DNA of 64,000 nucleotides from Raja brachyura (GCA_963514005.1 OY740785.1:79608001-79672000); one strand, 5' to 3'; shown: positions 9,660 to 63,680, counted from the first letter of the stretch. The notes: generated by a model not told the origin, from the sequence alone. Numbers and translations: made by a program.

Positions 9660-10344
9660 GACCCGCTGTGTGTGTGTGTGTGGTGAGGTGTCCTCCCCTG
9701 AATTCCATAGAGCTGCCGACAACTTTCGTGCATGAGACACGGACGCTTCATTTCCAGAACATTCTGAACGCGTGACGCACGGTTGCATTTCGCTCTCTGT
9801 CTCTCCCCTCTCTCTCCCCCCACCCTCTCTCTCTCTCCCCCACCCTCCATCCCCTAAACCGCCTTCCCCCCTCCACTCCATCCCCTCCCCACCCTCCCTT
9901 CCCCCCACCTCTCCCCCTCCCTTCCCGCCCTCTCCCCCCTTCCCTCTGCCTCTCTCCCTCTCTCCTCCCCTCTCTCTCTTCCCTCCCATCTCTCTCACCC
10001 CTCCTACCTCACCCTTCCCCCCTCACCCACCCTCCCTTTCCTCCTCCACTCCATTCTCCCTCTGTCTCTTGCCCTTCTGTCTCTGCCCATTTCTCTCTGT
10101 CTCTTCCCATTCTCTCCCTCCCTCTCTAGACGTGCCTGCGAGTTGAGGGCTATGTGTCAGTGGATAGGGCGGTTATGGGGTAACAGGAGCAAATTAATAA
10201 TATTAATATATCAAGGTAGTTAGCATGTGTGCGGGGAGGGAGGTAGTTAGTGTGTAGTGTGTGTGTGCGCCCCCCCCCCAGCTTCCCCTCTCCCCCGCAA
10301 CCACACGTTGGGGAACAGACACAATGAGCCTGCACTTGGTCTAG
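9660..10344 (+). mobile_element. Non-autonomous Helitron-like unit (5' boundary uncertain)
   Basis: Ends ...gggaacagacacaatgagcctgcacttggtCTAG|T, a degenerate form of the hairpin+CTAG terminus at 50822 and 54849. Internal C/T tract. Module 10125-10260 is homologous to 56180-56315 and 57170-57305 (opposite strand). Confidence 0.7.
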
Positions 10345-11255
10345 TATATTTTTAAAACTGTGTGTGTGTGTGTGGGTGTGTGTCATTTTGCCTTTGAAAC
10401 ATATTTTCTCAAAAACCAGACGCAAAAACGCAGAGATTGTTACATATTTTGTTAGCGATTTAACTTATGATTTCAGAAATCGACTCCTCTCTAAATTTGA
10501 TCAATTATTTCCCCAGATTTTTAATAAAGTTGTTTTTTTTAATCAAATCTCTGCGGCAGCTGCAGACGTCACAATGTCCTTGCTTGCAGCACCGCCCATT
10601 CCCCCCCCCCCCCATGCTCTTGATTAAAGCAGATGCTTACAATGTGCATCCCCGTTCTTTAAAAGGCTCAGAACGATCGAGAAGGTTATGCAGCAGACCC
10701 TACAGCTCAGCTCCGCTATAGGATTTTTGTTCTGCAGATCGCTCATGCACGCTGAAAAAGCTCTCCTCACTGCCGGTGCAGCTTGTGACGCCCCGCCCAT
10801 CCCGCCTGCCCGCTCATTCCAGCTGTGGGTTTCCGGAGAGTCAGAAGCCAGTGAGAGTCAGAGGCCCAATCGTCTACCCCCCCGGCCCAGCTCTGTCATA
10901 CTGGTGGGAGCGGAAGTCACGATCGGCTGGCCCCCCCCGCTGCTTTTCACCGTCCTCAGATCGCTCCATGCCTCGCTCACGTGGGCCCACGCTAGTTTAG
11001 CCCCGCCTCTCTCTCTCCCCCTCTCTCGCTCTCTCTCCCCTCTCTCTCTCTCTCTCCCCCCCTCTCTCTCCCTCACTCTCCCCTCCCCCTCTCTCTCTCC
11101 CCATCCCCCTCTCTCTCCCTCCTCCCCTCCCCGCTCTCTCTCCCCCCACTCTCTCTCCACCCCTCTCTCTCCTCTCCCCCCTCTCTCTCTCTCTCTCTCT
11201 CTCACTCTCTCTCTCTCTCTCTCTCCCTCCCGTCCCTCTCTCTCTCTCCCCCACA
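10345..11255 (+). mobile_element. Second Helitron-like unit fused head-to-tail, 3'-truncated
   Basis: Begins tatatttttaaaactgtgtg right after CTAG. 10400-10870 is the reverse complement of the modules at 55681-56140 and 56683-57100. Ends in a (CT)n tract. Confidence 0.65.
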
Positions 11256-40125: not shown

Positions 40126-40844
40126 CTTTAAAAGAAGAGGGGGAGAGGGGGGAAGAAGGAGTGGAGACAACTTTTAAGAAGCCAGAGATACACGGCTGAG
40201 AAGCTCAGTGGACATTTAACATTACTGGTCGGTTATCCTTGGTTTTGAAAACAACTGCTTACGTTTTTTCCCCCCCAATGCGCCAATTAAATTCACCGGC
40301 ATCACCGGCTATAACCTACGAGAACCATCACCCTCCTGGCAACCCACTAGGACCTCCTGGCGACCCACCTATTACTCGATACTCTCCATGGTGGCTTCAT
40401 TCTAGTCGCCGCTAATTTGTCAATATGTTGACAAATTTGCGGAGACCATAATGAGACCGCGACTAGTTCCCAGAATGCGGGTATAGTGACAGATTATATC
40501 GTTCAAGGAATTTCTCACTTTAGCCACTATGAGAAGACAAGGGGGTAAGGAGATAGCATTGTTCATGCATGGGAGCCCTCCTCGAGACATTCAAAGCCGT
40601 TCAAAGATAAATCTCTTGATTAATAGTTTCTTTATTGTCGCAGTAAAACAGTAAGATATTCATCCAAACTTCTTGTTAAGTACATTTTAATCTTACTAGT
40701 AATCAAACTCCAGTGCGTGGCTCTGACATGTTAGAAAGCTCCAAACGTGGTCAAAAGCTATGCCATCCCGCCATGCTTCTTCCAAACTAAAAGAAAACGA
40801 ACTAGCTTCTGCGCAAGATTCCCAGCAGCAAACACGCCTCCGAA

Positions 40845-41791
40845 TCTTATATTATTAAAAGTCTGATCTTGACCGCTTTTGGCTCACTGTGGTGTGATTT
40901 CTGAGAGAATGTTGCCACCTACAGCCGTCATTTTCGGCCAGCACGCTCAGACTCCCCCTCCGCCATACTGGACCAGAGGATTTTTCCCATCGATGAAAAA
41001 TCAGAGAGATATTAATGTTTTTAAAAATTCGCCATTCTCTCTGCTGCCCCTGCTGGATGGAGGGGGAGGGACTATAAAACCCGAAAGTGGTGTGCCTCAC
41101 TCAGTCTCTGCAAGATGGAGGAAGCCAGAGGGTCACATCTCTCTGAGCTCTGAATAGCACTGAACACATGTCTACTCAACTGTGAGTGCCCTTAATGTGG
41201 TTCTATAAATGCTTGCAAAAAGTGTCTATTGGTTTTAAAATGCTTGCAGAAAGTGTCTATTGATTCTAAAATGCTTGCAAAAAATGTCTATTGGTTCTAA
41301 AATGCTTGTACAAAGTGTCTATTGTTTCTAAATGCTTGCAAAAAGTGTCTCTATTGGTCTCTACATGCACGGATTTACTCATTACGTTTAAAAAAAATCA
41401 TACAGCTCTCACCCATAGAATGTTGGTGAACGTTCCACCGTGTGATGTCACAATGCGATCCCTCATGGAATGGATCTAATTTACATATGCCTTTGCACCA
41501 GCCCCAGCCCCAGCCCCCCCCCCCCCATAGCCTGTGTTGAAGTGTGTGATCACATGTGTGGGGATAGAGAAAGAGGATTGGAGGTGATAGGGAATGGAAA
41601 ATAGATGGATTGCCCCTACCTCTCCCCCACCCCTCCCTCCACACTCTTCCCCTCCCTTCCCTACCCCATCTCCCTCCTCCCCTCCCTCCCTCCCCCACAC
41701 CTCTCTCCCCTTCCCAATCCCACTCTCTTCCCCCACCCCTCTCCTACCCCCTCTCCATCTCCCTCTCCTCTCCCTGCTCCACTTAGTCTAG
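40845..41791 (+). mobile_element. Non-autonomous Helitron with both termini
   Basis: A|TCttatattattaaaagtctg 5' end and ccacttagtCTAG|T 3' end (subterminal hairpin not evident). Internal 30-bp tandem repeat and C/T tract. Confidence 0.75.
41195..41365. repeat. ~30-bp minisatellite (aaatgcttgcaaaaagtgtctattggttct) x ~5
   Basis: Read directly; lies inside the Helitron. Confidence 0.9.
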
Positions 41792-49754: not shown

Positions 49755-50433
49755 AGGGCCTGTCCCACCAGCATGTGACTCCATGCGGTGAGCGTGACCT
49801 AACGTAGTCACTTGAGCCGTCCGGCCTCGTGGGGCCGGTCCCACTTCGATCGCCGGAGCCGTGTGGAGTTGTGCGGAGCTGGTCCCGACATCGCGCGGGG
49901 CTCGGAAAAACTGACCGTGTTCAAAATTTCCGCATGGCAATGGCCTGTCGGCCCGCAACCGCCTCGATGCATTACGCACCGCCTCACGTCATGCCTCCGT
50001 GACCCTCTCTATATGTGCCTCCGTGTCCCTCTCTGTGTGCCTCCGTGGCCCTCTCTCTGTGCTTCCGTGACCCTCTCTGTGTGCCTCCGTGACCCTCTCT
50101 CTCTGTTCCTCCGTAACCCTCTCTGTGTGCCTCCGTGGCTCTCTCTATATGTGCCTCCGTGACCCTCTCTGTGTGCCTCCAAGGCCCTCTCTTTCTATGC
50201 CTCCGTGACCCTCTCTGTGTGCCTACGTGGCCCTCTCTATATGTACCTCTGTGTCCCTCTCTCTGTGCCTCAGTGTCCCTCTCTGTGTGTCCCTCTCTGT
50301 CCTTGCGAACTTACCGTGGACTTCGCTCCAACTTCGCTCCCACGTCGCGCCACTCACCCGATCTCTGCGCAGCCCCCTCTTCCAGTTTGTTCGCGCTCAC
50401 CGCATGGAGTTGCATGCTGGTGGGACAGACCCT
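49755..50433. mobile_element. Harbinger-type MITE with an internal minisatellite
   Basis: ~40-bp TIR agggcctgtcccaccagcatg.gactccatgcggtgagcg / cgctcaccgcatggagttgcatgctggtgggacagaccct; flanks taa/caa. Confidence 0.85.
49990..50302. repeat. 22-24-bp minisatellite (gtgcctccgtgaccctctctgt) x ~13
   Basis: Read directly from the sequence. Confidence 0.92.
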
Positions 50434-50821
50434 CAAGGCTATGATTGCACAGAAGGTGCAAAGGAGCTTATAGGATGTTGCCTGGGATAGAACCTGTCAG
50501 TTATGAGGAGAGACCAAATAGGTGGGGTTTGTTTTCCTTGGAGCAGAGTTGTTACCTGCTATAATTATGAGAGGCATAGATAGCATGGATAGTGGGAAAC
50601 TTTTCTTCAGAACAGAAATGTCTAAAACCACAGGCCACAGGTTTAAGGTGAGGACTAAGAGAGTTAAGGAAAAGAATCTTCACCCAGAAGACGATTGCAA
50701 TCTGGAGTGCACTGCCTGAGAAGGTAGTGGGGTCAAGTTATTAAAAAGCCTCTGGAGAAGCAATTGAATGTCCAAGACAAAGGTGAAAGGGCCATGTGCT
50801 GGTAAATAGGATTAGTAGAGA

Positions 50822-53800
50822 CTAGACCAAGTGCAGACCCGTTGGGTCTGTTCCCCCAACGTGTGGTTGCAGGGGGGAGGGAGGGAAGGGAGGAGGGGAG
50901 AGAGGGGTGGGAGAGGGAGGGGGAGAGGTGGGGGATGGGGGAGAGAGAAATGGAAGTGGGGAAGGAGGGTGAGAGGTGTAGGGGAGAGTGGCAGAAGTGG
51001 GAGAGAGAGAGGGGGAAGGGGGAGTGGTGGAAGAGAGAGAGAGTAGTAGGGGAAAGGGATGGGGGAGATAGGGAGGGAGGGGAGAGAGAGAGTGGGTGAG
51101 GGAGAGAGGTGGGGTGGGGGAGGGGTGGGGGAAAGGAGAGAGGTGGAAGAGTGGGAGGGAGGGGGAGAGGGGTAGGGGAGTGGTGGAAGTTGGAGAGAGG
51201 GAGGGGATGGTGGTGGGGGAGTGGTGGAAGAGGGAGAGAGGGGTAGGGGGAAGGGGGTGGGAGGGAGTGGTGGAAGAGGCACAGGGGTAGGGGGAAGGGG
51301 GTGGGGAGAGAGAGGGAAGGGGAAGGTGGAGAGAAGGATGGGGGTGGGGGAGAGAGGGAAGGGGTGGGAGGAGGACGGGGGTGAGGGGATTAGAGAGGGG
51401 TGGGGGAGGGGGAGGGGGAAGAGGGGGAGATGAGAGCAGAGGGATGGGGGAAGGGGAGGGGGAAGAGGGGCAGATGAGAGCAGAGGGGTGGTGGAAAAGA
51501 GGTGAGGAAATGGACAGGTGGTGGGGAGAGGAGAGGGGGAGGAAGAGGGGGAGGGGAGGTGGAGAGAGAGTGGAGGGGGAGAGGGAGAGAGTGGAAGGGG
51601 AGAGAGAAAAAGGGGAGGGAGAGTTGACTTTCCTGTCGAACTAAATCAAATAATAAGATTTCGAAAATGAAAAATAATTTAGATCGATCGCTGTCGAGAA
51701 ACGAAGTCCGAATTACCGTTGGGGAAGAATGTTCTGGAAAAGGTTTCAAAGGCAACTCGAGCAAGCAATGTTCCCCCCAGTCACATGTGTGGGGGATAGT
51801 GGAACAGTGTCCCCCAGTCACATGTGTGGGGGATAGTGGTGCAGTGTCCCCCTAGTCACATGTGTGGGGGATAGTGGTACAGTGTCCCCCTAGTCACATG
51901 TGTGGGGGATGAGGTACAGTGTCCCCCTAGTCACAAGTGTGGGGGAAGTGGTACAGTGTCCCTCTAGTCACATGTATGGGGGAAGTTGTACAGTGTCCCC
52001 CTAGTCACATGTGTGGGGGAAGTTGTACAGTGTCCCTCTAGTCACATGTGTGGGGGAAGTGGTACAGAGTCCCCCTAGTCACATGTGTGGGGAAAGTGGT
52101 ACAGTGTCCCCCTAGTCACATGTGGGGGGGGGGGGGGAATGAGGTACAGTGTCCCTTAGTCACATGTGTGGGGGGTATTAGGTGGTACAGTGTCTCCCTA
52201 GTCACATGTGTGGGGGTTGAGGTACAGAGTCCCCCTAGTCACATGTGTGGGGGATATTAGGTGGTACAGTGTCCCCCTAGTCACATGTGTGGGGGAAGCG
52301 GTAGTGTCTCCCTAGTCACATGTGTAGGGGGGGTGCGGGGCAGCATGTCCCTGAGGGTGGGTGAGGGGGTTAGAGAGGGGTGCGGTAAGGGGAAGGGGAG
52401 GGGAGAGGAGATGGGAAGGTGAGAGGAGAGGGGTTATGGGGAAGAGGGGAGGAAAAGGAGGTGGGGGGGAGAGGAGAGGGGGAGAAAGAGGGGTAGGGGA
52501 GAGGTGGAGAGAGAGTGGGGGAGGGAGGGGAAAAGGTGGGGAATGGGGGAGAGAGAAGTGGAAGTGGGGAGGGAGGGGAGAGGTGTAGGGGAGAGTGGTG
52601 GAAGTGGGAGAGAGGGAGGGGGAAGGGGGAGTGGTAGAAGAGGGAGAGAGGAGTAGGGGAAAGGGGTGGGGGAGATAGGGAGAGAGGGGAAAGAGAGGGT
52701 GGGGAGGGAGAGAGGTGGGGTGGGAGAGGGGTGGGGGAAGGGAGCGAGAAGTGCAAGAGTGGGGAGGGAGGGGGAGAGGGGTAGGGGAAGTGGTACAGTG
52801 TCCCCCTAGTCACATGTGTGTGGGATATTAGGTGGTACAGTGTCCCCCCAGTCACATGTGAGGGGAATGAGGTACAGTGTCCCCCTAGTCACATGTGTGG
52901 GGGAAGTGGTACAGTGTCCCCCAGTCACATGTGTGGGGGATGAGGTACAGTGTCCCCCTAGTCACAAGTGTGGGGGATATTAGGTGGTACAGTGTCTCCC
53001 TAGTCACACGTGTGGGGGATGAGGTACAGAATCCCCCTAGTCACATGTGTGGGGGATATTAGGTGGTACAGTGTCCCCCTAGTCACATGTGTAGCGGAAG
53101 TGGCACAGGTCCCCCAGTCACATGTGTGGGGGATGAGGTACAGTGTCCCCCTAGTCACGTGTGGGGGAAGCGGTACAGTGTCCCACTAGTCACATGTGTG
53201 GGGGAAGTGGTGCAGTGTCCCCCTAGTCCCATGTGCGGGGGGGGGGGGGGGGTGGGGCAGCATGTCCCTGAGGGTGGGTGAGGGGGTTAGAGAGGGGTGG
53301 GATAAGGGGAAGGGGAGGGGAGAGGAGAGGGGAAGGTGAGAGGAGAGGGGTTATGGAGAAGAGGGGAGGAAAGGGAGGTGGAGGGGAGAGGAGAGGGGGA
53401 GAAACAGGGGTAGGGGAGGGGTGGAGAGAGAGTGGAGGGGGAGGGAGAGAGAGTGAAAGGAGAGGGAGAGAGGTGTGGAGAGAGAGGGGGTGAGAGAGGA
53501 GGGGGAGAGAGAGGGAAAGGAGTGGGGGAGAGGTGGGGAGGGGAAGGAGAGGGGAAGAGTGGTGATTGAGGGGAAGAGGGGTAGCAGGGAGTGGTGCAAG
53601 AGCGATGGGAGGGGGGGATGGGGATAAAGAGGGGTGGGAGAGAGAGGGCGTGGGAGTGGTAAGGAGAGAGGGAGATGGAGAGGGGGAGAGGGAGGAGGAG
53701 AGGGGGGTGGGGGAAGGTGTGAGAGGGTTCAGGGAGGGGTGGGAGGGGAAGGGGAGAGAGGGGGAAGAGTGTGGAGGGAGGGGGAGGGGTAGGGGAGAGA

Positions 53801-54848
53801 GAGGGAAGAGTGTACAGGGAGGGGGAGAGTGGTATGGGGACGGGGAAGAGTGAGGAGGGAGGGGGAAGCGGAGAGAGGAGGAAGAGTGGGGGGGAGGGAA
53901 GGGAGGAGGGGGTTTTAAGCATTTTTAAAAAATTACTTGTCTAACGTAAAGTATAGATACGCAATGAAAACTAGAAAATGAATTAAAATTATCACTTGTC
54001 TAAAGATAACACTTGATAACACGGCTGTGGAAATCGGCAAAGAAAAAAGCAATCACTTCAAAGTGGAGTCCTTTGAATAAAGAGAGAATATTAAAAAAAC
54101 GGGAATTTGTGTGTTAATTTGGCGGAGCAAATAACGGAGAACTTAATAAAAATAATTATTCAAATATAAATAAATATTGAAAACATCGTCTACGTTAACC
54201 TTTTCAAAAAAGTGTAAATTGATATAATAAGATTTTCAAAACAAAAGTGTCAAATTAAAAATGAAATAACGGCAGAAATCCAGCGTTTAGATCGATCGCT
54301 GTCGAGAAACGAAGTCCGAATGACCGTTGGGGAAGAATGTTCTTGAAAAGGTTTCCAAGGCAACGCCAGCCGGCAATGTTCCCCCAGTCACATGTCAACA
54401 CAGGCTGCGGGGTGAGGGCTGGGGCTGGGGCCAAGGCAGATCCATTCCGATTGGCCATCTGTGAGGGATGGCATTGTGACATCACACAATGGAACGTGCT
54501 GCAACATCAGGAGGGGGAGGGGGGGAGGGGGGGCTGGGGCTGAGGCAGATGTAAATGAGATCCGTTCCGATTGTCCATCTGACAGATTTACCAACATTCT
54601 ATGGGTGAGAGCAGTTTGATTTTCGAAAAGGGGGGGGGGGGGGGGATGACGACGGATTTTATTAAAAACGGTGTACGTAACGACGTCCAAACGTGACGGA
54701 GAGCGCCGTCGGGAAAGCGCGAGCGTAACGTCCGGGCCGGTGGGAAAAACGGCGGCGTCCGAGGGTCCTGTTTCGGCGGAGCGCGACATCAAAGGGCGGC
54801 GACGCAGCAGACGGTTGTCGACAGCCGGCCACACAGTTTTAATATATA
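50822..54848 (-). mobile_element. Helitron-like unit (~4 kb) with G/A tracts and minisatellites
   Basis: Minus-strand 3' end cagaccc-aac-gggtctg hairpin, 8 nt, CTAG|T. Minus-strand 5' end tatatattaaaactgtgtgg abuts the CTAG of the next unit. Confidence 0.8.
51770..53240. repeat. Two arrays (51770-52330, 52788-53240) of a ~35-38-bp minisatellite gtggtacagtgtccccctagtcacatgtgtggggga
   Basis: Read directly; each unit has a palindromic cacatgtg core flanked by C-run and G-run. Confidence 0.95.
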
Positions 54849-57800
54849 CTAGACCAAGTGCAGACCTGTTGGGTCTGTTCCCCCAACGTGCGGTTGCAGG
54901 GGAGGGAGGGCGGGGCACCATGTCCCTGAGGGTGGGTGAGGGGAGTAGAGAGCAGTGGGGTAAGGGAGAGGAGAGGGGAAGGTGAGAGGAGAGGGGTTAT
55001 GGGGAAGAGGGGAGGAAAAGGAGGTGGAGGGGTGAGGAGAGGGGGAGAAAGAGGGGTAGGGGAGAGGTGGAGAGAGAGTGCAGGGGAGGGAAAGAGAGAG
55101 AAAGGAGAGGGAGAGAGGTGGGGAGAGAGAGGGGGTGAGAGAAGAGGGGAGAGAGAGAGAAAAGGGGGGAGAGGTGGGGAGGGGAAGGAGAGGGGAAGAG
55201 TGGTGTGAGGGGAAGAGGGGTAGCAGGGAGTGGTGCAAGAGCGATGGGAAGGGGTGGGGGGGAGATGGGGATGAGGAGGGGTGGGAGAGAGAGGGGGTGG
55301 GAGCGGTAAGGAGAGAGAGAGATGGAGAGGGGGAGAGGGAGGAGGAGAAGGGGGTGGGGAAGGTGTGAGGGTTCAGGGAAGGGTGGGAGGGGAAGGGGAG
55401 AGAGGGGGAAGAGTGTGGAGGGAGGGGGGGAGGGGTAGGGGAGAGAGAGGGAAGAGTGTGCAGGGAGGGGGAGAGTGGTAGGGGAGGGGGAAGAGTGAGG
55501 AGGGAGATTGCGGGGGGGTAGGTGGCGGTGGAGGGGAAGGTGTGGAGGGGGCTTAGGGGAAGGACGGTGGGGGAGGGCAGGGGGTTGGGAGAGAGAGAGA
55601 GAGCGTGGTGGGGAGAGAGAGAGCGAGCGTGTGGGGAGAGAGGGAGAGAGAGAGAGAGAGAGAGCGTGGGGGGAGAGGGAAGCGGCTTCTGACTTGGGGA
55701 AACCCACAGCTGCAATAAGCGTGCAGGGCTTCATGAGCTGCGCTACCGGTCATGAGAAGCTTCAGCGCGTGATCCAATAGCGGAATGGAGCTATAGAATA
55801 TTTCTTCTGCAGAACTTATGAGTAGATTCAGCGCGTGAGCAATCACTGCCTTCAGATCTGTAGAACAAAGAAGCTATAGCGGAACGGAGCTGTAGAACGT
55901 TTGTTCTGCACAACTTTCTCGATCTTTCTGCGCCTTTAATCCACGGCGGGGGGGGCGGGGCCTGGAGGCAGGTGGGCGTGGATTGGTGGGCATGTGGGCA
56001 TTGTGACGCCAGCAGCTGGCAAGTGCCGTTTATATTTAAAAAAATTAGTTCTGTGACTTAAAAATCTGGGGAAATAATTGACCAAGGAGTGGATTTCTGA
56101 ACTCATAAGTTAAATCCTTACGCTTTTTTGCATCTGGTTTTCGAGGATGGGGGGGGTGGGGCGGTATGCAGTGTCTCACACACACTAACCACCCCCACAC
56201 AAACACACTAACTACCCCCCTTGATATTATATTAATATTATTGATTTGTTCATTTTACCCCATAACGGCCCTATCCACTGACGCATAGCCCCCACCTCGC
56301 AGGCGCGTCTAGAGAGGGGGGGGGGGCGTAGAGAGTGTGGGCAGAGAGAGAATGGGGAGAGACAGAGACAGAAGGGCAGGAGACAGATGGAGAGGAGGGG
56401 GGGGAGGAGGGGAGAGAGAGAGATGGAGAGAGAGAGGAGGGGGTGGGAAGGGAGGGGGAGAGGTGGGGGGAAGGGAGGTCGAGGGAAGGGGGGAGGGGGT
56501 GGATGGGTGTGAAGGGGGAAGGGGGTTTTAGGGGAGGGAGGGTGGTGGAGGAAGGAGGAGGAGGAAGAGACGATTGTGTATAGGATCTTTGGTAGAGAGC
56601 AGAGAGGAAGGAAGGAGAGGGGACGAGGTGAGTAAAGAAGGGGGGGGAGCCGGGCTGCTAAATGAAGAAGGAGAGAGAGAACCGGCTTCTGACTCTGGAA
56701 ACCCACAACTGGAATGAGCGCGCGGGGCTTCACGAGCTGCGCCAACAGTGATGAGAAGTTTAAGCGCGTGATCCTATAGCAGAGAGGAGTAGATTCAGCG
56801 TGTGAGGAGTCGCTGCCCCGAGATCTGTAGAACAAAGAAGCTATAGCGGAACTGAACTGTAGAATCTTTGTTCTGCAGAACTTTCTCGATCTTTCTGCGC
56901 ATTTTAATCCACAACGGCAGGGGGGGGCCTGGAGGCAGGTGGGCATTGTGACGTCAGCAGCTGGTGAGTGGCGTTTATATTTCGAGTTTTGTGATAAATT
57001 TTATTCAAAATCTGGGGAAATAATTGACCAAGGAGTCGATTTCTGAACTCGAAATCGAAATTCTGAAAGTTAAATCGAAATTGTAAAAATCTCTGGATTT
57101 CTAGGAGTTACGTTACACACACACGATTTGTGGTTCGGGGGGGGGGGGGGGTGGGGTGGCATGCGGCGACACACAGACTAACTACCCCCCGCACACACGC
57201 TAACTACCCCCCTTGATATTATATTAATATTATTAATTTGCTCCTTTTACCCCATAACCGCCCTATCCACTGACGCATAGCAACCAACTCGCAGGCGCGT
57301 CTAGAGAGGGAGGGGGGTAGCGAGTGAGAGCAGAGAGAGAATGGGGAAAGAGAGAAAGGGCAAGAGACAGAGTGAGAGGGGGTGGAGGGGAGGAGGAGAG
57401 GGAGGGTGGGTGAGGGGGAGGGTTGGGGAGGATAGGTGAGAGAGTCGGGAGGAGAGCGGAGAGAGGGGGGAGGGAGAGGGGGGAGGGAGAGGGGGGAAGG
57501 GAGAGGGGGGAAGGGAGAGGGGGGAAGGGAGAGGGGGGAAGGGTACAGGGGGAAGGAGGGTGTGGAGGGGGATTGGTTTGACATAACTCGGCCTCGCAAC
57601 GCCTGCAGCCATTGATAACAGCCAGCTGACAACAGCCTTTTAAAGTCGCTAAGGCAAGATGCGTTCATCCAGGAGCGAGCGTTGACAGCAAAGGAGCACC
57701 GGCTTCTGACTCTCTGGAAACCCACAGCTGGAATGAACGCGCAGGGGATGGGAGGGGTGCGCAGGTGGGCGGGGCTTCGCGAACTGCGCCGGCTGTGAGG

Positions 57801-57855
57801 AGAAAGTTCAGTGCGTGAGGAGTTGATGCCCTGAGATCTGAAGAACAAAGAAACT
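54849..57855 (-). mobile_element. Helitron-like unit made of ~1-kb tandem modules
   Basis: Minus-strand 3' end cagacc-caaca-ggtctg hairpin + cacttggtCTAG. Module ggcttctgact..aaacccaca..agatctg..gaacaaagaa recurs at ~55683, 56683 and 57700. Confidence 0.75.
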
Positions 57856-57862
57856 ATATTCA

Positions 57863-58869
57863 GGTATTCCGAAAAACGCAAGGAACCATGGGATTTGTCA
57901 AAGGTCATTCGCGATAAACATTCTTGGCAACTGTGCTGCTGCATGTATACAGACCTGCGTTTCATCCGTAGGCAGGATCGAACCCGGGTCTCCGGCGCTG
58001 CAAGTGCTGTTCAATAGCTACTGGACCGTCCCCGTCCCCTCCCGAGTGTCCCATCCCTGTCTGGGGGCGGCCGGAGATGTCCGGGGTGTCCCTGGACTGA
58101 TGCGAGTCAGACGGGAGTGGCGACCCAGACTTGCAGCCAACGTTGTGAAGAAGTGCAAACTCCAGCTCAACTCCGCCTGTCCCGCCAGATTAACCGACAG
58201 CCCTGGACTGACGGGATACTGGCCCGTGCAGTGGCGGCCCAGGCTTACAGTCAGCGCGGAGAAGAAGTGCTAACTACTGCTCAACTCTGCCTGTCCCGCC
58301 GAGTTAACTGACAGCCCTGGACTGATGGACAACCGGCCCAGAGCAGTGTAGTTAGCGCTTCTTCTCTGCGCTGGTTGTAAGCCTGGGTCACCACTGCAAT
58401 GGGTCGATGTCTCGTTAGTCCAGGGCTGTCGGTTAACCCGGCGGGCCAGGCGGAGATGAGCTGGAGTTTGCGCTTCTTCACAACGTTGGTTGTAAGCCTG
58501 GGCCTCTACTGCACGGGCCAGTGTCCCATCAGTCCAGGGCTATCGGTTAATCCGGCGGGACAGGCAGAGTTGAGCTGGAGTTAGCGCTTCTTCACAATGT
58601 TGGCTGTAAGCCTGGGCTGCCACTCCCGTCTGACTCCCGTCAGTCCAGGGTCACCACCGAAAGTCTCCGATTGCCCCCGGAAAGGAATGGAACACTCAGG
58701 ATGAGAAGGGGACAGTCCAGTAGCAATTCAACTGCGCTTGCAGCGCCGGAGACCCGGGTTCGAATCCCGACTATGGATGAAACGCAGGTCTGTATTGATG
58801 CAGCAGCACAGCTGCAGAGAATGTTTATCGTGAGTGACCTATGACCTGGGCATGCGCCGTGGGAATACC
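57863..58869. mobile_element. ~1-kb foldback (palindromic) element with ~113-bp internal subrepeats
   Basis: ggtattcc / ggaatacc ends. The arms are reverse complements over ~400 bp. Subrepeat gcctgtcccgcc..ttaac.gacagccctggactga occurs 2x forward and 2x reverse. Confidence 0.88.
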
Positions 58870-59394
58870 GAAATTGCGTATTGCTCTTGTTGATTATGCA
58901 TGGAGATGCAAGTTTGCAAAGGCGGACCCTGTATGATATGATTTATATATATTAAAAAAACATTATGCAGAATAAAATATATGTTAAATGCAAAAACTTT
59001 TCAGTGACTCTCAGTGTGCATATCTTCAGGTAGCCCCGGCATTCTCTCTCTCTATCCCTCCCCCACCCAAGTCGCACGAGCTTCTCGTTTTCACCCATCA
59101 AACAGCTAACAATGGCCTGTTTAAATTATTGTAGCGGCGCCTACTGGCACGCGCTAGTATTGAACCCGGCGGTCGGAAGCCGTGGGCAAGTGACCTGGGA
59201 GGGGTCAGGGTATTTGCGCGGTTTTGCTTTCACGCGGCAGTTGTTCGACTGACCACCATTGTGGCCAGTCGCATGTGTATAGACCTGTAGATCAAGGATC
59301 GAGTTCACAATAAAAAACGTTCAAAGAAACTCGTCGTCGTCTTTGCACCGCCGAATTGGTGACCCCAACCTGTCTAGCCGTAGTTAGACAGGGA

Positions 59395-60100
59395 TCATGC
59401 AAGAAGACTATGTTCCCGCAGAATCGGCTGGCATGCGGCAGGGCTCACCTGGGTTCAGACTGCCCATGTTTTGGCCGGATCAACCGCAAGTTTGGTTCAC
59501 CCATGTGGAGGCATAGTTTCACCTGTACAGGATCGTCGTAGATGAGACCATGTACTTCCTCGTTGTGGGGGCTCTGCCACAGGACTGTGCCTCGAAGTTG
59601 AAGCCGTACATAAGAGATCTGCCGGCGGTAAGTATGAAGGGTTGAAGACTCTTCTGCCTCAGCTGCCGGGACAGGGCGGCGAAGATCCTCCACATGAACA
59701 GGATCCGTGACCGGCGGCAGTCCACCATTATGGCGAAGAGTTTGACCCTGATGGACAGGCATCGACCGTGTTTGCTGTTCGAGCTGGCTTTCCATGAGCA
59801 GATGCCGGATGAAGTCCGTTTGATGTTCGCTGGGGCTGACTTCAGCGATCCACAGCACCTCGCGGAGAAGGCCGATGATCTGTGGACCACCGGACGGCGG
59901 GACGTTTGCTCCTTTACCCGCCCTGTTGCCACGGCTAGGGTGCAGCCCAGAAGACATTGAGAGGAAGGTCAGCGGTCGCCCAGCACCGAAGACTCATCGT
60001 CGCAGACGGACGTCGTTGGTGTTATTACCACCTCCGTTATGGTTTTGAAGCCAGACGATGCCGAAGCCCCTGCTCGTTTCAGGGAAATGCCTTGGCCAAT
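59395..60100 (+). pseudogene. gag: Gypsy gag, frameshifted
   Basis: RLPMFWPDQPQVWFTHVE near 59457; LAEKADDLW; Cys/His knuckle WCYYHLRYGFEARRC near 60017. Confidence 0.75.
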
Positions 60101-62990
60101 CGCCCAAAGAGGCGACCGCGATCGGCCTGAACGAACACCTCTACGTCCGTAATCTCCACTCAGGCCACCGTTTCCTGGTTGACTCCGGTGCCATAGCCAG
60201 CATCCTGCCGCCGACCACCCAAGATACCCGTGTCGGTATGGTAGGACCCGTCCTCTCGGCCGTTAACGGGAGTGACATCCGAACTTACGGTACGCGGACC
60301 TTGCACTTTCAACTCCCACCCGTACAGGTGGAAGTTTATCATTGCTGACGTCGCCCAGCCAATTTTGGGGGCCAATTTCTTGCTCGCATTCTCCCTGCTA
60401 GTCGATGTGCGGGGCGGGCAGATGGTCCCGTTGTCGGACCTGTGCCCTGTCGCGCCACGTAACCCTTTAACGTCCCAACAGCAACCCGACAATGTAGCTG
60501 AGGTACAGGAACCTTTCGCAGCCCTTTTGACCGATTTCCCAGAGCTGCTCACGCCCCGGCTCAAAGGGGCTGTGCCTCGTCATGGCGTAATCCACCACCT
60601 TCCCACGGAGGGCCCACCTGTTCACCCGCCACCTCCTGCCCGATAAACTGCGGAAATGGGGATTGTCCGGCGGTCGGATAGCCTTTGGGCTTCTCCTCTG
60701 CAAATGGTACCTAAATGGTCCGAGGGCTGGAGAGCTTGCGGTGATTACACGCGTTTAAACGCTGTGACCACGGCAGATCGGTACCCAGTGCCCCACATCC
60801 AAGATTACTCAGCTCATTTGGAGGGAGCTACCTTCTTTTTGAAGGTCGACCTGGTCGGGGTTATAATCAGATCCCGGTTCACCCAGTCGACATCCCTAAG
60901 ACGGCCACCATTGGCCTTTTCGATTGGTTAAGAATGCCGTTTGGCCTGAAGAACGCCGCTCGCGTTCCAAAGGTTAATGGATCAAGTCGGGCGGGGTTTG
61001 CCATTCATTTTCATCTACCTGGATGATATTCAGGTGGCCAGCAGTTCACAGGTTGAACACATTAAGCACCTTCGCCTGCTTTTTGAGTGGTTGCGTAAGC
61101 ACAGCTTGGTGATATATCCTGCAAAGTGCCAATTCGGGTTGCGCTCCATCTCCTTCTTGGGACACAGTGTCACCCCCCCAGGGTGCCCAATTGTTGCCTA
61201 AGAAGGTCAACGTCATCTTCCATTTCCCGAGGCCACTCTCCATCAAGGGCCTACAGGAATTCATCGGCATGGTGAATTTTTACCACCGATTCGTTCCGTC
61301 AGCGGCCGCTGTTATGCGACCGCTGTTCCAATGTCTTGCAGGCAAGCCAAAGGATCTGGTTTGGTCCAAAGAAACTAGTATAGCTTTCGAGGGTGCAAAG
61401 ACCGCATTGGCCAATGCCACCATGCTGGTGCACCCGAGGGCGTCCGCTCCTACGGCCCTCACCGTCGATGCTTCGGACGTCGCGGTGGGCGCTGTCCTGG
61501 AGCAGCCGGTAACTATCCGCTGGCGTTTTTCAGCAGGCAGCTGTGGGCCCCGGAGTGTAAGTACAGCACTTTCGACAGGGAACTCCTCGCGCTCAGGCAT
61601 TTCCGCTATTTCCTGTCTGGCGATCAGGCATTTCCGCTATTTCCTTGAGGGACGCGTGTTCACTGCCTTCACGGACCACAAGCCGCTCACGATCGCATTG
61701 AGCAAGGTAGCCGATCCGTGATCTGCCAGGCAACAGCGGCACCTCGCCTACATATCCGAATTCACATCTGACATTCGGCATGTAACAGGGAAGCTGAACG
61801 CGCTATCCCATCTGGCTGTTCCTGCGGTTTCCGTTCTGAACCTTGGGGTGGACTACACTGAGCTGGCAGCGGCTCAACGGGCCGATGCCGGCACGGCGGA
61901 TTGCGACAATGCTGATTCGGGACTCAAGCTAGCCGAGGTGCCTTGTGGCGCTGCAGGCGGCGGGTCCTTTGTGATATCTCCACAGGTAGGGCCCGCCCGA
62001 TCGTCCCAGTTGCTTGAAGGCAGCGTATATTTGACACTGTTCACAGCCTAACCCACCCATCCATTCGCGCCACCGCCGCCCTGATTACATCGAAGTTTGT
62101 CTGGCATGGGTTACGGAAACAGGTTGCTATGTGGGCTCGTGTTTGTATCCCATGTCAGACTTCCAAAGTGCAGCGGCATGTGCGGCTGCCGGTGCAGAAT
62201 TTTGCTGGTCTTGATGGCAGGTTTCTGAACATTCATGTTGACCTGGTCGGACCCTTGCCGTGTTCGCGCGGGGCCATGCACCTACTCACCAATATGGATA
62301 GGTTTACCAGGTGGGCGGAGGCAGTAGGAGGCTTGCGCTCGTGCTATTAACTCACATTGGATCGCTCATTTTGGGGTCCTGTCGGATATCGCCACTGAGG
62401 GCTCAGTTTATGTCCTCCCTGTGGTGTGGTTTGGCGCAGCTGTACGGCGAGAAGTTCCACCAGACAATCGCTTATCACCCGGAGGCGAACAGGTTAGTTG
62501 AGCGGTTCCACAGACACCTTAAGTCAGCGTTGAAGGCCCGGCTCACCAGCCCCGATTGGGTTGACCAGTTGCCCTGTGTTCTCCTAGGCATCAGAACTAC
62601 GCCGAAGGAAGACCTCGACGCCTCCTCGGCTGAGCTGGTTTATTGCTCGGTTTTGCGGGTACTTGGGGATTTTGTACCAGCCACCCCGGCTTCGGCCGTG
62701 CTAGCTGACCTTCGCGAGAGGTGTGCGTGTTGGTCCCAGTTCCCATCTTCAGGCATGGGTTGGCCGCGGTGCATGTACCTACTATGTTACAGGATTGTTT
62801 TATGTGCTTATGTTTCCTTCGTAGAGACGTTCACCGCTCGCCGTTACAGCGGGTGTACGAAGGACCGTTCAAGGTGTTAAAGACTAGTACCTCGACGTTC
62901 ACGTTGGACATGGGTGGCAGGGAGGAGTTCGTCTCCGTCAGTCGCCTTCAGTCAGCTTACGTGGACGAGGACAGCCCAGTGACAGAGGCC
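60100..62990 (+). pseudogene. pol: Gypsy pol (PR-RT-RNaseH-IN), multiple frameshifts
   Basis: FLVDSGA (protease); WASPLQMV, GDYTRLN, YLDD (RT); VDASDVAVGAVLEQ, TDHKPL (RNase H); HVDLVGPLP, LVERFHR, YEGPFKVL (integrase). Confidence 0.9.
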
Positions 62991-63455
62991 ACTTCATGGC
63001 ATAGAGAGGGTCCGCCGGCTGTTTTGCCGTCCTCTGCGACTGTTATTCCCGGTTTTGTTTCACCGGTCTCCGGTGTTACGCCCATCCCTCATTCGCGGTT
63101 TTCACGTCCCTCCGGTTCTGTTTTGCCGGTCCCTTATGTTACACTCCTTCCGCGTTCACGGATTACGCGTTCCGATCGTACGGTTCAGTTACCTGTGCGT
63201 TTCCGTACCTCGGTTTCTGGGAGGGGGAGGGCTGTAACGGCACCTGCTGTCGTGCGCCAGTATCGAACCCGGCAGTTGGAAGCCACGGGCACGTGACATG
63301 GGAGGGGTCGGGGTTTTCGCGCGGTTTCGCTTTTGCCCGGCAGTTGTTCGACTGACCACCGTTGCGGCCAGTTACGTGTGTATAGACCTGTAGATCAAGG
63401 AACGAGTTCACAATAAAAACTGTTCAAAGAAACTGGTCGTGTCTTTGCACCACCA

Positions 63456-63680
63456 AATTATCATCGTTACTTTTTTGCATATCTTTCATTCGTTGTTCTT
63501 TATCCCTCTACATCATAATCTATATCTCTCGTTTCCCTTATCCTTGACCAGTCCGAAGAAGGGTCTCGACCCGAAATGCCACCTATTCCTTCTCTCCAGA
63601 GATGCTGCCTGCCCCGCTCCAGCGCCGCTTTGTGTGTCTGGCTTCGGTTTAAACCAGCATCGGCAGTTCCCTTCCTCCTC
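63456..63680 (+). mobile_element. Right half of the Penelope-type tail split by the Gypsy (left half ~59020-59123)
   Basis: cagctaacaatggcctgttt continues as atcatcgttacttttttgcatatc...gaagaagggtctcgacccgaaa..ccagagatgctgcc. Confidence 0.75.

Follow-up and report, generated by a model that had tools for sequence, protein, structure and literature searches.

Helitrons of the Helibat1-Helraiser/HelibatN group begin with 5'-TC, end in a hairpin followed by CTAG-3', and enter an A|T target without duplicating it (PMC4778049, PMC5876387; PDB 7LCC). The precise circle junctions described for Helraiser read CTAG|TC, and its insertions prefer AT-rich DNA, most strongly 3' of the insertion (PMC4778049). 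In plants, arrays of truncated Helitrons have been ascribed to rolling-circle replication (Xiong et al. 2016, as reviewed in PMC12628747), and for FoHeli of Fusarium a self-insertion model has been proposed for multiple 5' termini (Chellapan et al. 2016, PMC5148889), one FoHeli4 lying 2 bp from another. Here we describe a head-to-tail pile of Helitrons on the minus strand of Raja brachyura DNA, at positions 50822-57858 of a window of 64,000 nucleotides (GCA_963514005.1 OY740785.1:79608001-79672000) from a genome of 2.7 Gb. A first, sequence-only reading of the window had taken it for a rolling-circle concatemer of non-autonomous Helitrons.

The pile shares with the Helraiser group the 5'-TC of its family, the hairpin with CTAG-3' and the A|T target. 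However, Helraiser circle junctions keep the TC whereas the genomic junctions studied here lack the first 4-5 nt, and the AT-rich preference reported for Helraiser is given, in the available text, with no defined target word equal to the element's own head (PMC4778049, PMC5876387). The plant arrays are likewise made of tandem, partly decayed units, but they are described as repeating one template, many with multiple 5' ends and a single 3' end, while the units here belong to different subfamilies and each ends in CTAG (PMC12628747). In the FoHeli model a Helitron also enters a Helitron, and use of the leftmost 5' start with the first 3' stop gives two 5' termini; that model rests on few cases, on non-canonical fungal elements and on duplicated 5' pieces of less than 200 bp, and its available text contains neither a fixed register nor a target consensus that agrees with the head, nor any test of a remnant against the downstream element (PMC5148889). 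Tandem dimers arising from target preference instead of rolling-circle copying were described by McGurk and Barbash 2018 (PMC5932611), but there the target is regenerated by target-site duplication (TSD), which is absent here, where the element's head itself carries a copy of the target; the word 'Helitron' does not occur in the available text of that paper. Arrays, chimeras and microsatellites are described in PMC12001565, PMC4224331 and PMC4344730, in the portions available without head targeting. We found no report of fixed-register insertion into a head or of prefix stacks in a full-text search, judged from listings and the openings of abstracts, of a library without most subscription papers. 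Self-insertion itself has already been proposed for fungal Helitrons.

The pile contains the following features.

50822-54848, minus strand: unit A, classed as a non-autonomous Helitron1 of 4,027 bp, with an intact 3' end and a head lacking its first 5 nt
50822-50850, minus strand: 3' terminator of unit A, with a 7-bp stem, a 3-nt loop, 8 nt and CTAG, then T on the minus strand
51678-51788, minus strand: duplicated block, 93% identical to its partner at 54286-54395
51772-52331, no strand assigned: 37-bp minisatellite array in unit A, 14.6 copies, present in family members too
52784-53241, no strand assigned: second 37-bp minisatellite array in unit A, 12.1 copies
54830-54877, minus strand: head-to-tail junction, where the hairpin and CTAG of unit B meet the head of unit A, which is without its prefix (CTAG|TATATATTAAAAC)
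54849-55507, minus strand: unit B'', ~660 nt from the 3' side of an L070-like third subfamily, ending in a hairpin and CTAG of its own
55508-57858, minus strand: unit B', a copy of a composite family (L074/L071-like) carrying three ~1-kb modules

The two minus-strand 3' ends that the sequence-only reading had placed at 50822 and 54849 are both present, and the 28-nt 3' end has 1,128 exact copies in the genome (reversed control, 0). The hairpin at 54849 consists of a 7-bp stem with one mismatch and a 3-nt loop, followed by 8 nt and CTAG; the fold z is -2.86 for the end at 50822 and -1.31 for the end at 54849, the latter not beyond shuffles when taken alone. The base downstream of CTAG was T in 272 of 277 distinct sampled ends, and A preceded TC in all 56 free heads paired with a tail, heads that had been selected on TC. 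Free heads of the family start with TCATA, TCTA or TCTTA, the type of unit A being A|TCATA-TATATATTAAAAC; the family thus has the 5' TC, and none survives at the locus, where unit A is prefix-less and unit B truncated. The pile has neither terminal inverted repeats (TIRs) nor a TSD, and the ends of unit A are not inverted.

A RepHel element with the same ends, which the earlier reading had suggested looking for, does exist in the genome. PF14214 gave 96 genome matches, and 10 of these were examined for shared ends. In a 10.3-kb RepHel element (G000:C4:319012-329285) the head is related and the tail almost identical, and in another on C775 the head is 83% identical to unit A over 431 nt; the latter carries Rep (PF14214, E 2e-53) and PIF1 (PF05970, E 3e-57) domains in the two frames scanned. 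The reading frames are broken in the RepHel copies that share ends, and a tblastn search of the window with the RepHel query found no coding remnant. Helraiser is the sole solved relative of this RepHel (E 4e-90). Since the elements have a hairpin with CTAG, T after CTAG, no TSD or TIR, and a RepHel partner with the same ends, their assignment as non-autonomous Helitron1 is supported, as judged from sequence. Helentrons (HLE2) have subterminal inverted repeats, a T|T target and no CTRR end; this class was rejected for the pile on account of the family's ends, TC...CTAG at A|T, no search for an endonuclease domain in the RepHel partner having gone beyond the two frames above. At G000:C47 3.8-4.6 Mb and C13 2.5-3.1 Mb, several identically scoring RepHel copies lie 120-350 kb apart, suggesting large tandem duplications.

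We next consider the junction. The CTAG at 54849 is joined directly to TATATATTAAAACTGTGTG, as had been noticed from the sequence, but that head is without its first 5 nt (TCATA). With matched patterns for TCATA-type heads, we found 179 prefix-less junctions genome-wide against a single intact CTAG|TCATA (reversed control, 3). Tails followed by TC numbered 191, and among the 100 matches listed about 20 were heads by eye, mostly of the TCTA type. When 86 tails were sampled regardless of their flank, 34 were followed by head-like sequence (2 of them doubtful), and 3 of these keep the TC. One junction, at L137, is missing the final bases of the tail.

The neighbours in these arrays are mostly unlike. 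In 52 adjacent tail pairs, which include a few that are not true junctions because host DNA lies between (L149, L165 and one in L171), the neighbour was the best match in 2. At this locus the last 250 nt of the two neighbours are 75% identical, compared to 96% elsewhere, and 29 of the 275 other tails come closer than the neighbour. The last 300 nt of unit A are 96% identical to L073, and those of unit B'' are 96% identical to L070. Outside the G/A tracts, units A and B share just ~620 nt at 90%, so that the description of the units as repeats of each other did not hold.

A rolling-circle concatemer would be one circle copied repeatedly and inserted as a multimer or, in a variant, a 3' end mis-joined 5 nt inside its own head. 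Helitrons do form circles, head-to-tail junctions and arrays have been cited in support of rolling-circle replication, and aberrant junctions were common in cells (PMC5876387); 2 of the 52 adjacent pairs, moreover, are 92-93% alike. But the units at the locus come from three different subfamilies, 50 of the 52 neighbours have better matches elsewhere, the TC prefix is absent at 179 of 180 junctions of the TCATA head type, and a single template gives no reason why there should be an outer prefix of the other type in agreement with the downstream head (see below). Because the prefix is absent at the junctions and adjacent units differ in subfamily, the concatemer of the sequence-only reading is unsupported; since the units are non-identical, it is largely refuted for this locus, and we consider it very unlikely overall.

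The host sites into which tails run have the consensus TAWWWWTTAAAA, with T first in 98%. The pattern T-n4-6-WAAW was present at 71 of 140 host sites compared to 344 of 4,982 random A|T sites. The target consensus A|TA-n4/5-TWAAA is also found inside the family's own heads, 5 nt in for the TCATA and TCTTA types and 4 nt in for the TCTA type, such that prefix plus core measure 17 nt in both head types, and the heads at junctions miss exactly those 4-5 nt. Because the head carries the target consensus and, elsewhere in the genome, the missing prefix lies outside the 5' end of the newcomer, insertion into older heads is the most likely source of the junctions. The pile holds at least three unlike non-autonomous Helitron1 copies, and its head-to-tail junction probably arose when one copy entered an older one at an A|T that lies five bases in from the latter's 5' end. 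This assignment rests on the form of the junction plus the behaviour of the family elsewhere.

Free heads bear stacks of TCATA, TCA, TCTA and TCTTA. At L063, L134, L199 and L209, pure (TCTA)n of at least 15 units leads straight into the head of a Helitron, which would fit a seeding of microsatellites by prefix stacks. These same heads favour another explanation, in which the element really begins at TATATATT..., the junction is that of a precise circle, and the upstream TCATA or TCTA belongs to a preferred microsatellite target in the host. However, free heads with one prefix after unique host DNA are common, the innermost prefix is family-specific, a RepHel head retains TCATA even directly behind another tail, the host sequence after CTAG is no microsatellite, and the neighbours are still unlike; we regard this explanation as quite improbable. 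A simple count, in which the number of stacked prefixes equals the number of downstream units, was rejected, as single copies bear 2-4 prefixes.

Insertion at the A|T inside a head makes a prediction: the prefix of the older copy must stay outside the newcomer's own 5' end. We scored this in 56 elements with both ends readable, from ~300 loci, of which 60 had been picked for prefix-less junctions; L160 was left out of the upstream analysis, and roughly half of the sampled tails went unscored, as no head was recognised within 6 kb of them. A prefix of the other type was found outside the element's own prefix in 13 of the 16 elements whose downstream head was of that other type, and in 4 of the remaining 40 (Fisher P 5e-7, automatic classing). 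After re-classing 8 downstream ends by eye, the counts were 15 of 18 and 2 of 38; as the copies are related, P values are indicative only. The prediction was made in advance for 40 new loci, for 22 of which the 3' end was in range. Five TCATA heads had TCTA directly outside, and both of the scorable ones were followed by TCTA-type heads. Two further heads with TCTA further out also had TCTA-type heads downstream, a post hoc observation. Single-prefix heads were followed by host DNA in 11 of 12 scorable cases.

Several results weigh against insertion into older heads as the source of the junctions. Same-type stacks had a unit downstream in 0 of 6 scorable cases, and the broad form of the prediction was weak, with 4 of 10 stacked heads against 1 of 12 single ones; remnants of the other type alone track the downstream head. 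Three of 33 head-followed elements carry no stack (L073, L190 and L268), the array at L236 likewise has just one prefix, and L010 runs into host DNA although its stack is of the other type. The neighbours in two pairs, at L064 (92%) and L079 (93%), are near-identical and may be products of true tandem amplification. The sample itself also bears on this, with 60 loci selected on prefix-less junctions, kin-related copies and 56 readable elements of ~300 loci. At this locus the stack is unreadable because the outer 5' end, and with it the remnant, is lost to a deletion. Deletions at the locus took both the B'/B'' junction and the outer 5' end, so that an insertion of B into A at this place and the arrival of the finished pair by read-through leave the same picture.

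Insertion into older heads could proceed as follows. The RepHel transposase would read one A/T-rich word both for the donor end and for the target, and every resident head would become a preferred target. Insertion would cut the head in two: its prefix, TCATA or TCTA, would stay on the outside, and the rest of the head would follow the CTAG of the newcomer. The outcome would be (TCATA/TCTA)n stacks. Since none of the six scorable same-type stacks was followed by a unit, something more must happen to produce these. Single copies that carry several prefixes could form when transfer begins at the outermost TC and ends with the first CTAG, or when same-family dimers collapse by recombination; slippage may be a third source of same-type stacks. 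Arrays without a stack suggest read-through of a dimer from an inner TC. At L184, a prefix stack followed by TCTAG and a prefix-less head lies ~2.56 kb upstream of the tail, as if the part of an upstream unit that lay between TCTA and TCTAG had dropped out. If an internal hairpin-CTAG were lost, units would merge into longer composite families that move as one, such as the three 1-kb modules.

Unit A is covered piecewise, at 74-86%, by family members L064, L073, L263 and L271 in alignment, and its family measures 3.2-3.9 kb including the minisatellite. The duplication of a block within the pile, reported from the sequence alone, was confirmed with slightly narrower limits (51678-51788 and 54286-54395). 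Its context, 51600-51830, has 9 full-length matches among 303 collected sequences, the best 8 at 87-97%, and is inherited family structure. Unit B' is 90% identical to L074 and L071 over 2.1-2.4 kb, and is without its last ~45 nt (hairpin and CTAG) and without ~1.6-2.0 kb of its 5' part. The alignment to unit B' ends at 57858 in three family members, 1.6-2.2 kb before their heads, and this left boundary of homology is a truncation and not a terminus.

The three ~1-kb modules of unit B' are indeed present (anchors at 55684, 56684 and 57701), but as local products they were not upheld. The first fused boundary is spanned by at least 40 other copies at 90-96% and the second by 14 collected loci, and because these boundaries are common to at least 40 other copies, the modules were inherited and not made here. 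They look like former single elements fused by loss of a tail|head junction. A further pile lies on the plus strand at 9790-11250, with a prefix-less CTAG|TATATTTTTAAAAC junction at ~10345; its modules at 9.8-10.9 kb match those of unit B', and the tail|head version is intact there.

Two features had not been described before in this stretch, namely the two 37-bp minisatellite arrays and a third, locally fused boundary at 55507/55508. The latter, the B'/B'' fusion, has a single genomic occurrence when up to 2 mismatches are allowed; B' has lost its hairpin-CTAG there, and a G/A tract begins or ends at the fusion point. Long G/A tracts are common to all units, and they and the unique fusion at a tract edge are what recombination or template switching among dispersed copies, with no new insertion into a head, would lead one to expect. 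Such crossovers within tracts would yield chimeras, however, and not a precise CTAG at a fixed position 5 nt into the head at 179 places. Recombination accounts for the fusions and not for the junction, and as an explanation of the latter we hold it to be as unlikely as the concatemer.

The host DNA around the pile contains three further features.

50608-50821, plus strand: left part of the host target, the decayed 3' end of a long interspersed nuclear element (LINE), cut where LINE copies read A then T
57859-58884, no strand assigned: unrelated palindromic repeat of ~1 kb adjoining the truncated 5' side, its left end ~10 nt short
58885-58943, plus strand: right part of the host target, the last ~60 nt of the same LINE 3' end, with ~6 nt lost

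A profile of 19 LINE copies matched the left flank (nhmmer E 1.9e-13) and reached the junction, whereas blastn of the left flank found no LINE copy extending to it. The right part, matched over 58885-58945, was not detected by nhmmer; its mean local score was 25.5 compared to 19.1 ± 0.8, and among 500 shuffles none scored as high, among 500 random pieces of the window one. In four other organisms, single contigs follow the left flank as far as 50821 exactly and read differently from there on, and the points at which these matches stop would mark an empty site at 50821.

Contigs from runs X15 and X16 cross 50821/50822 by just 25-26 letters, below the bridging threshold, and no contig spans the array, which is the opening for an assembly artefact created by low-complexity tracts. 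Yet the same type of junction is found at 179 places, the units are collinear with intact family members over 2 kb, and loose ends of the head type also occur beside tails in contigs of the four other organisms; an artefact is the least probable of the explanations considered, and we give it hardly any weight. Insertion into older heads is the explanation we retain for the junction.

The palindromic repeat is self-inverted at 82% over 958 nt with internal 114-bp repeats, and belongs to an abundant family with the ends AATAAGCGAGTTCGGTATTCC, as defined from 14 other copies. It probably predates the Helitron pile, since a contig of run X5 covers its right end plus flank. On the minus strand, TCATA-TCATA at 58933-58945 was tried as the pile's own prefix stack and rejected: it is the end of the interrupted LINE, set off from the palindromic element by 48 nt of non-Helitron DNA.

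Other elements were seen in the window. A single Helitron of a related family lies on the plus strand at 40835-41773, with an A|TCTTA head, an internal 31-bp tandem repeat, and CTAG followed by a consensus-like target. A GC- and CpG-rich stretch near the head of unit A (54650-54830), present in the 5' region of the RepHel element too, could be a promoter of the element or a captured promoter. Positions 59130-63459 hold a long terminal repeat (LTR) retroelement, presumably Gypsy-like by eye, with LTRs 86% identical and a 5-6-bp flanking direct repeat, inside another repeat. At 49755-50433, a small inverted-repeat element with 49-nt arms (88%) surrounds a 22/46-bp tandem array. The segment 63720-64000, ~6 kb from the pile, is CpG-island-like with an ATG and a GT splice donor, and may be the first exon of a host gene.

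The locus is one ordinary, damaged example among hundreds, and the interesting part is the rule of the family. In its full form, this rule would be self-targeting: the target word equals the element's own 5' end shifted by 4-5 nt, about four in ten insertions fall in older heads, each event adds a prefix of 3-5 nt, and the ordered stacks record the history of insertion, act as seeds for microsatellites of (TCTA)n and (TCATA)n, and drive the formation of composite families. We find the case for and against this full rule evenly balanced. It is still debated how Helitrons choose their targets and whether tandem arrays in genomes truly come from rolling-circle replication. For these questions the family offers a simple test at the sequence level (retention or loss of the TC, presence or absence of a remnant), along with a concrete biochemical substrate. 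Annotation tools will mis-set the 5' ends of such elements. If the rule is general, many head-to-tail Helitron junctions cited for rolling-circle concatemers would be nested insertions, told apart by retention of the 5' TC, and the family would provide a route from transposition to new microsatellites and mosaic elements.

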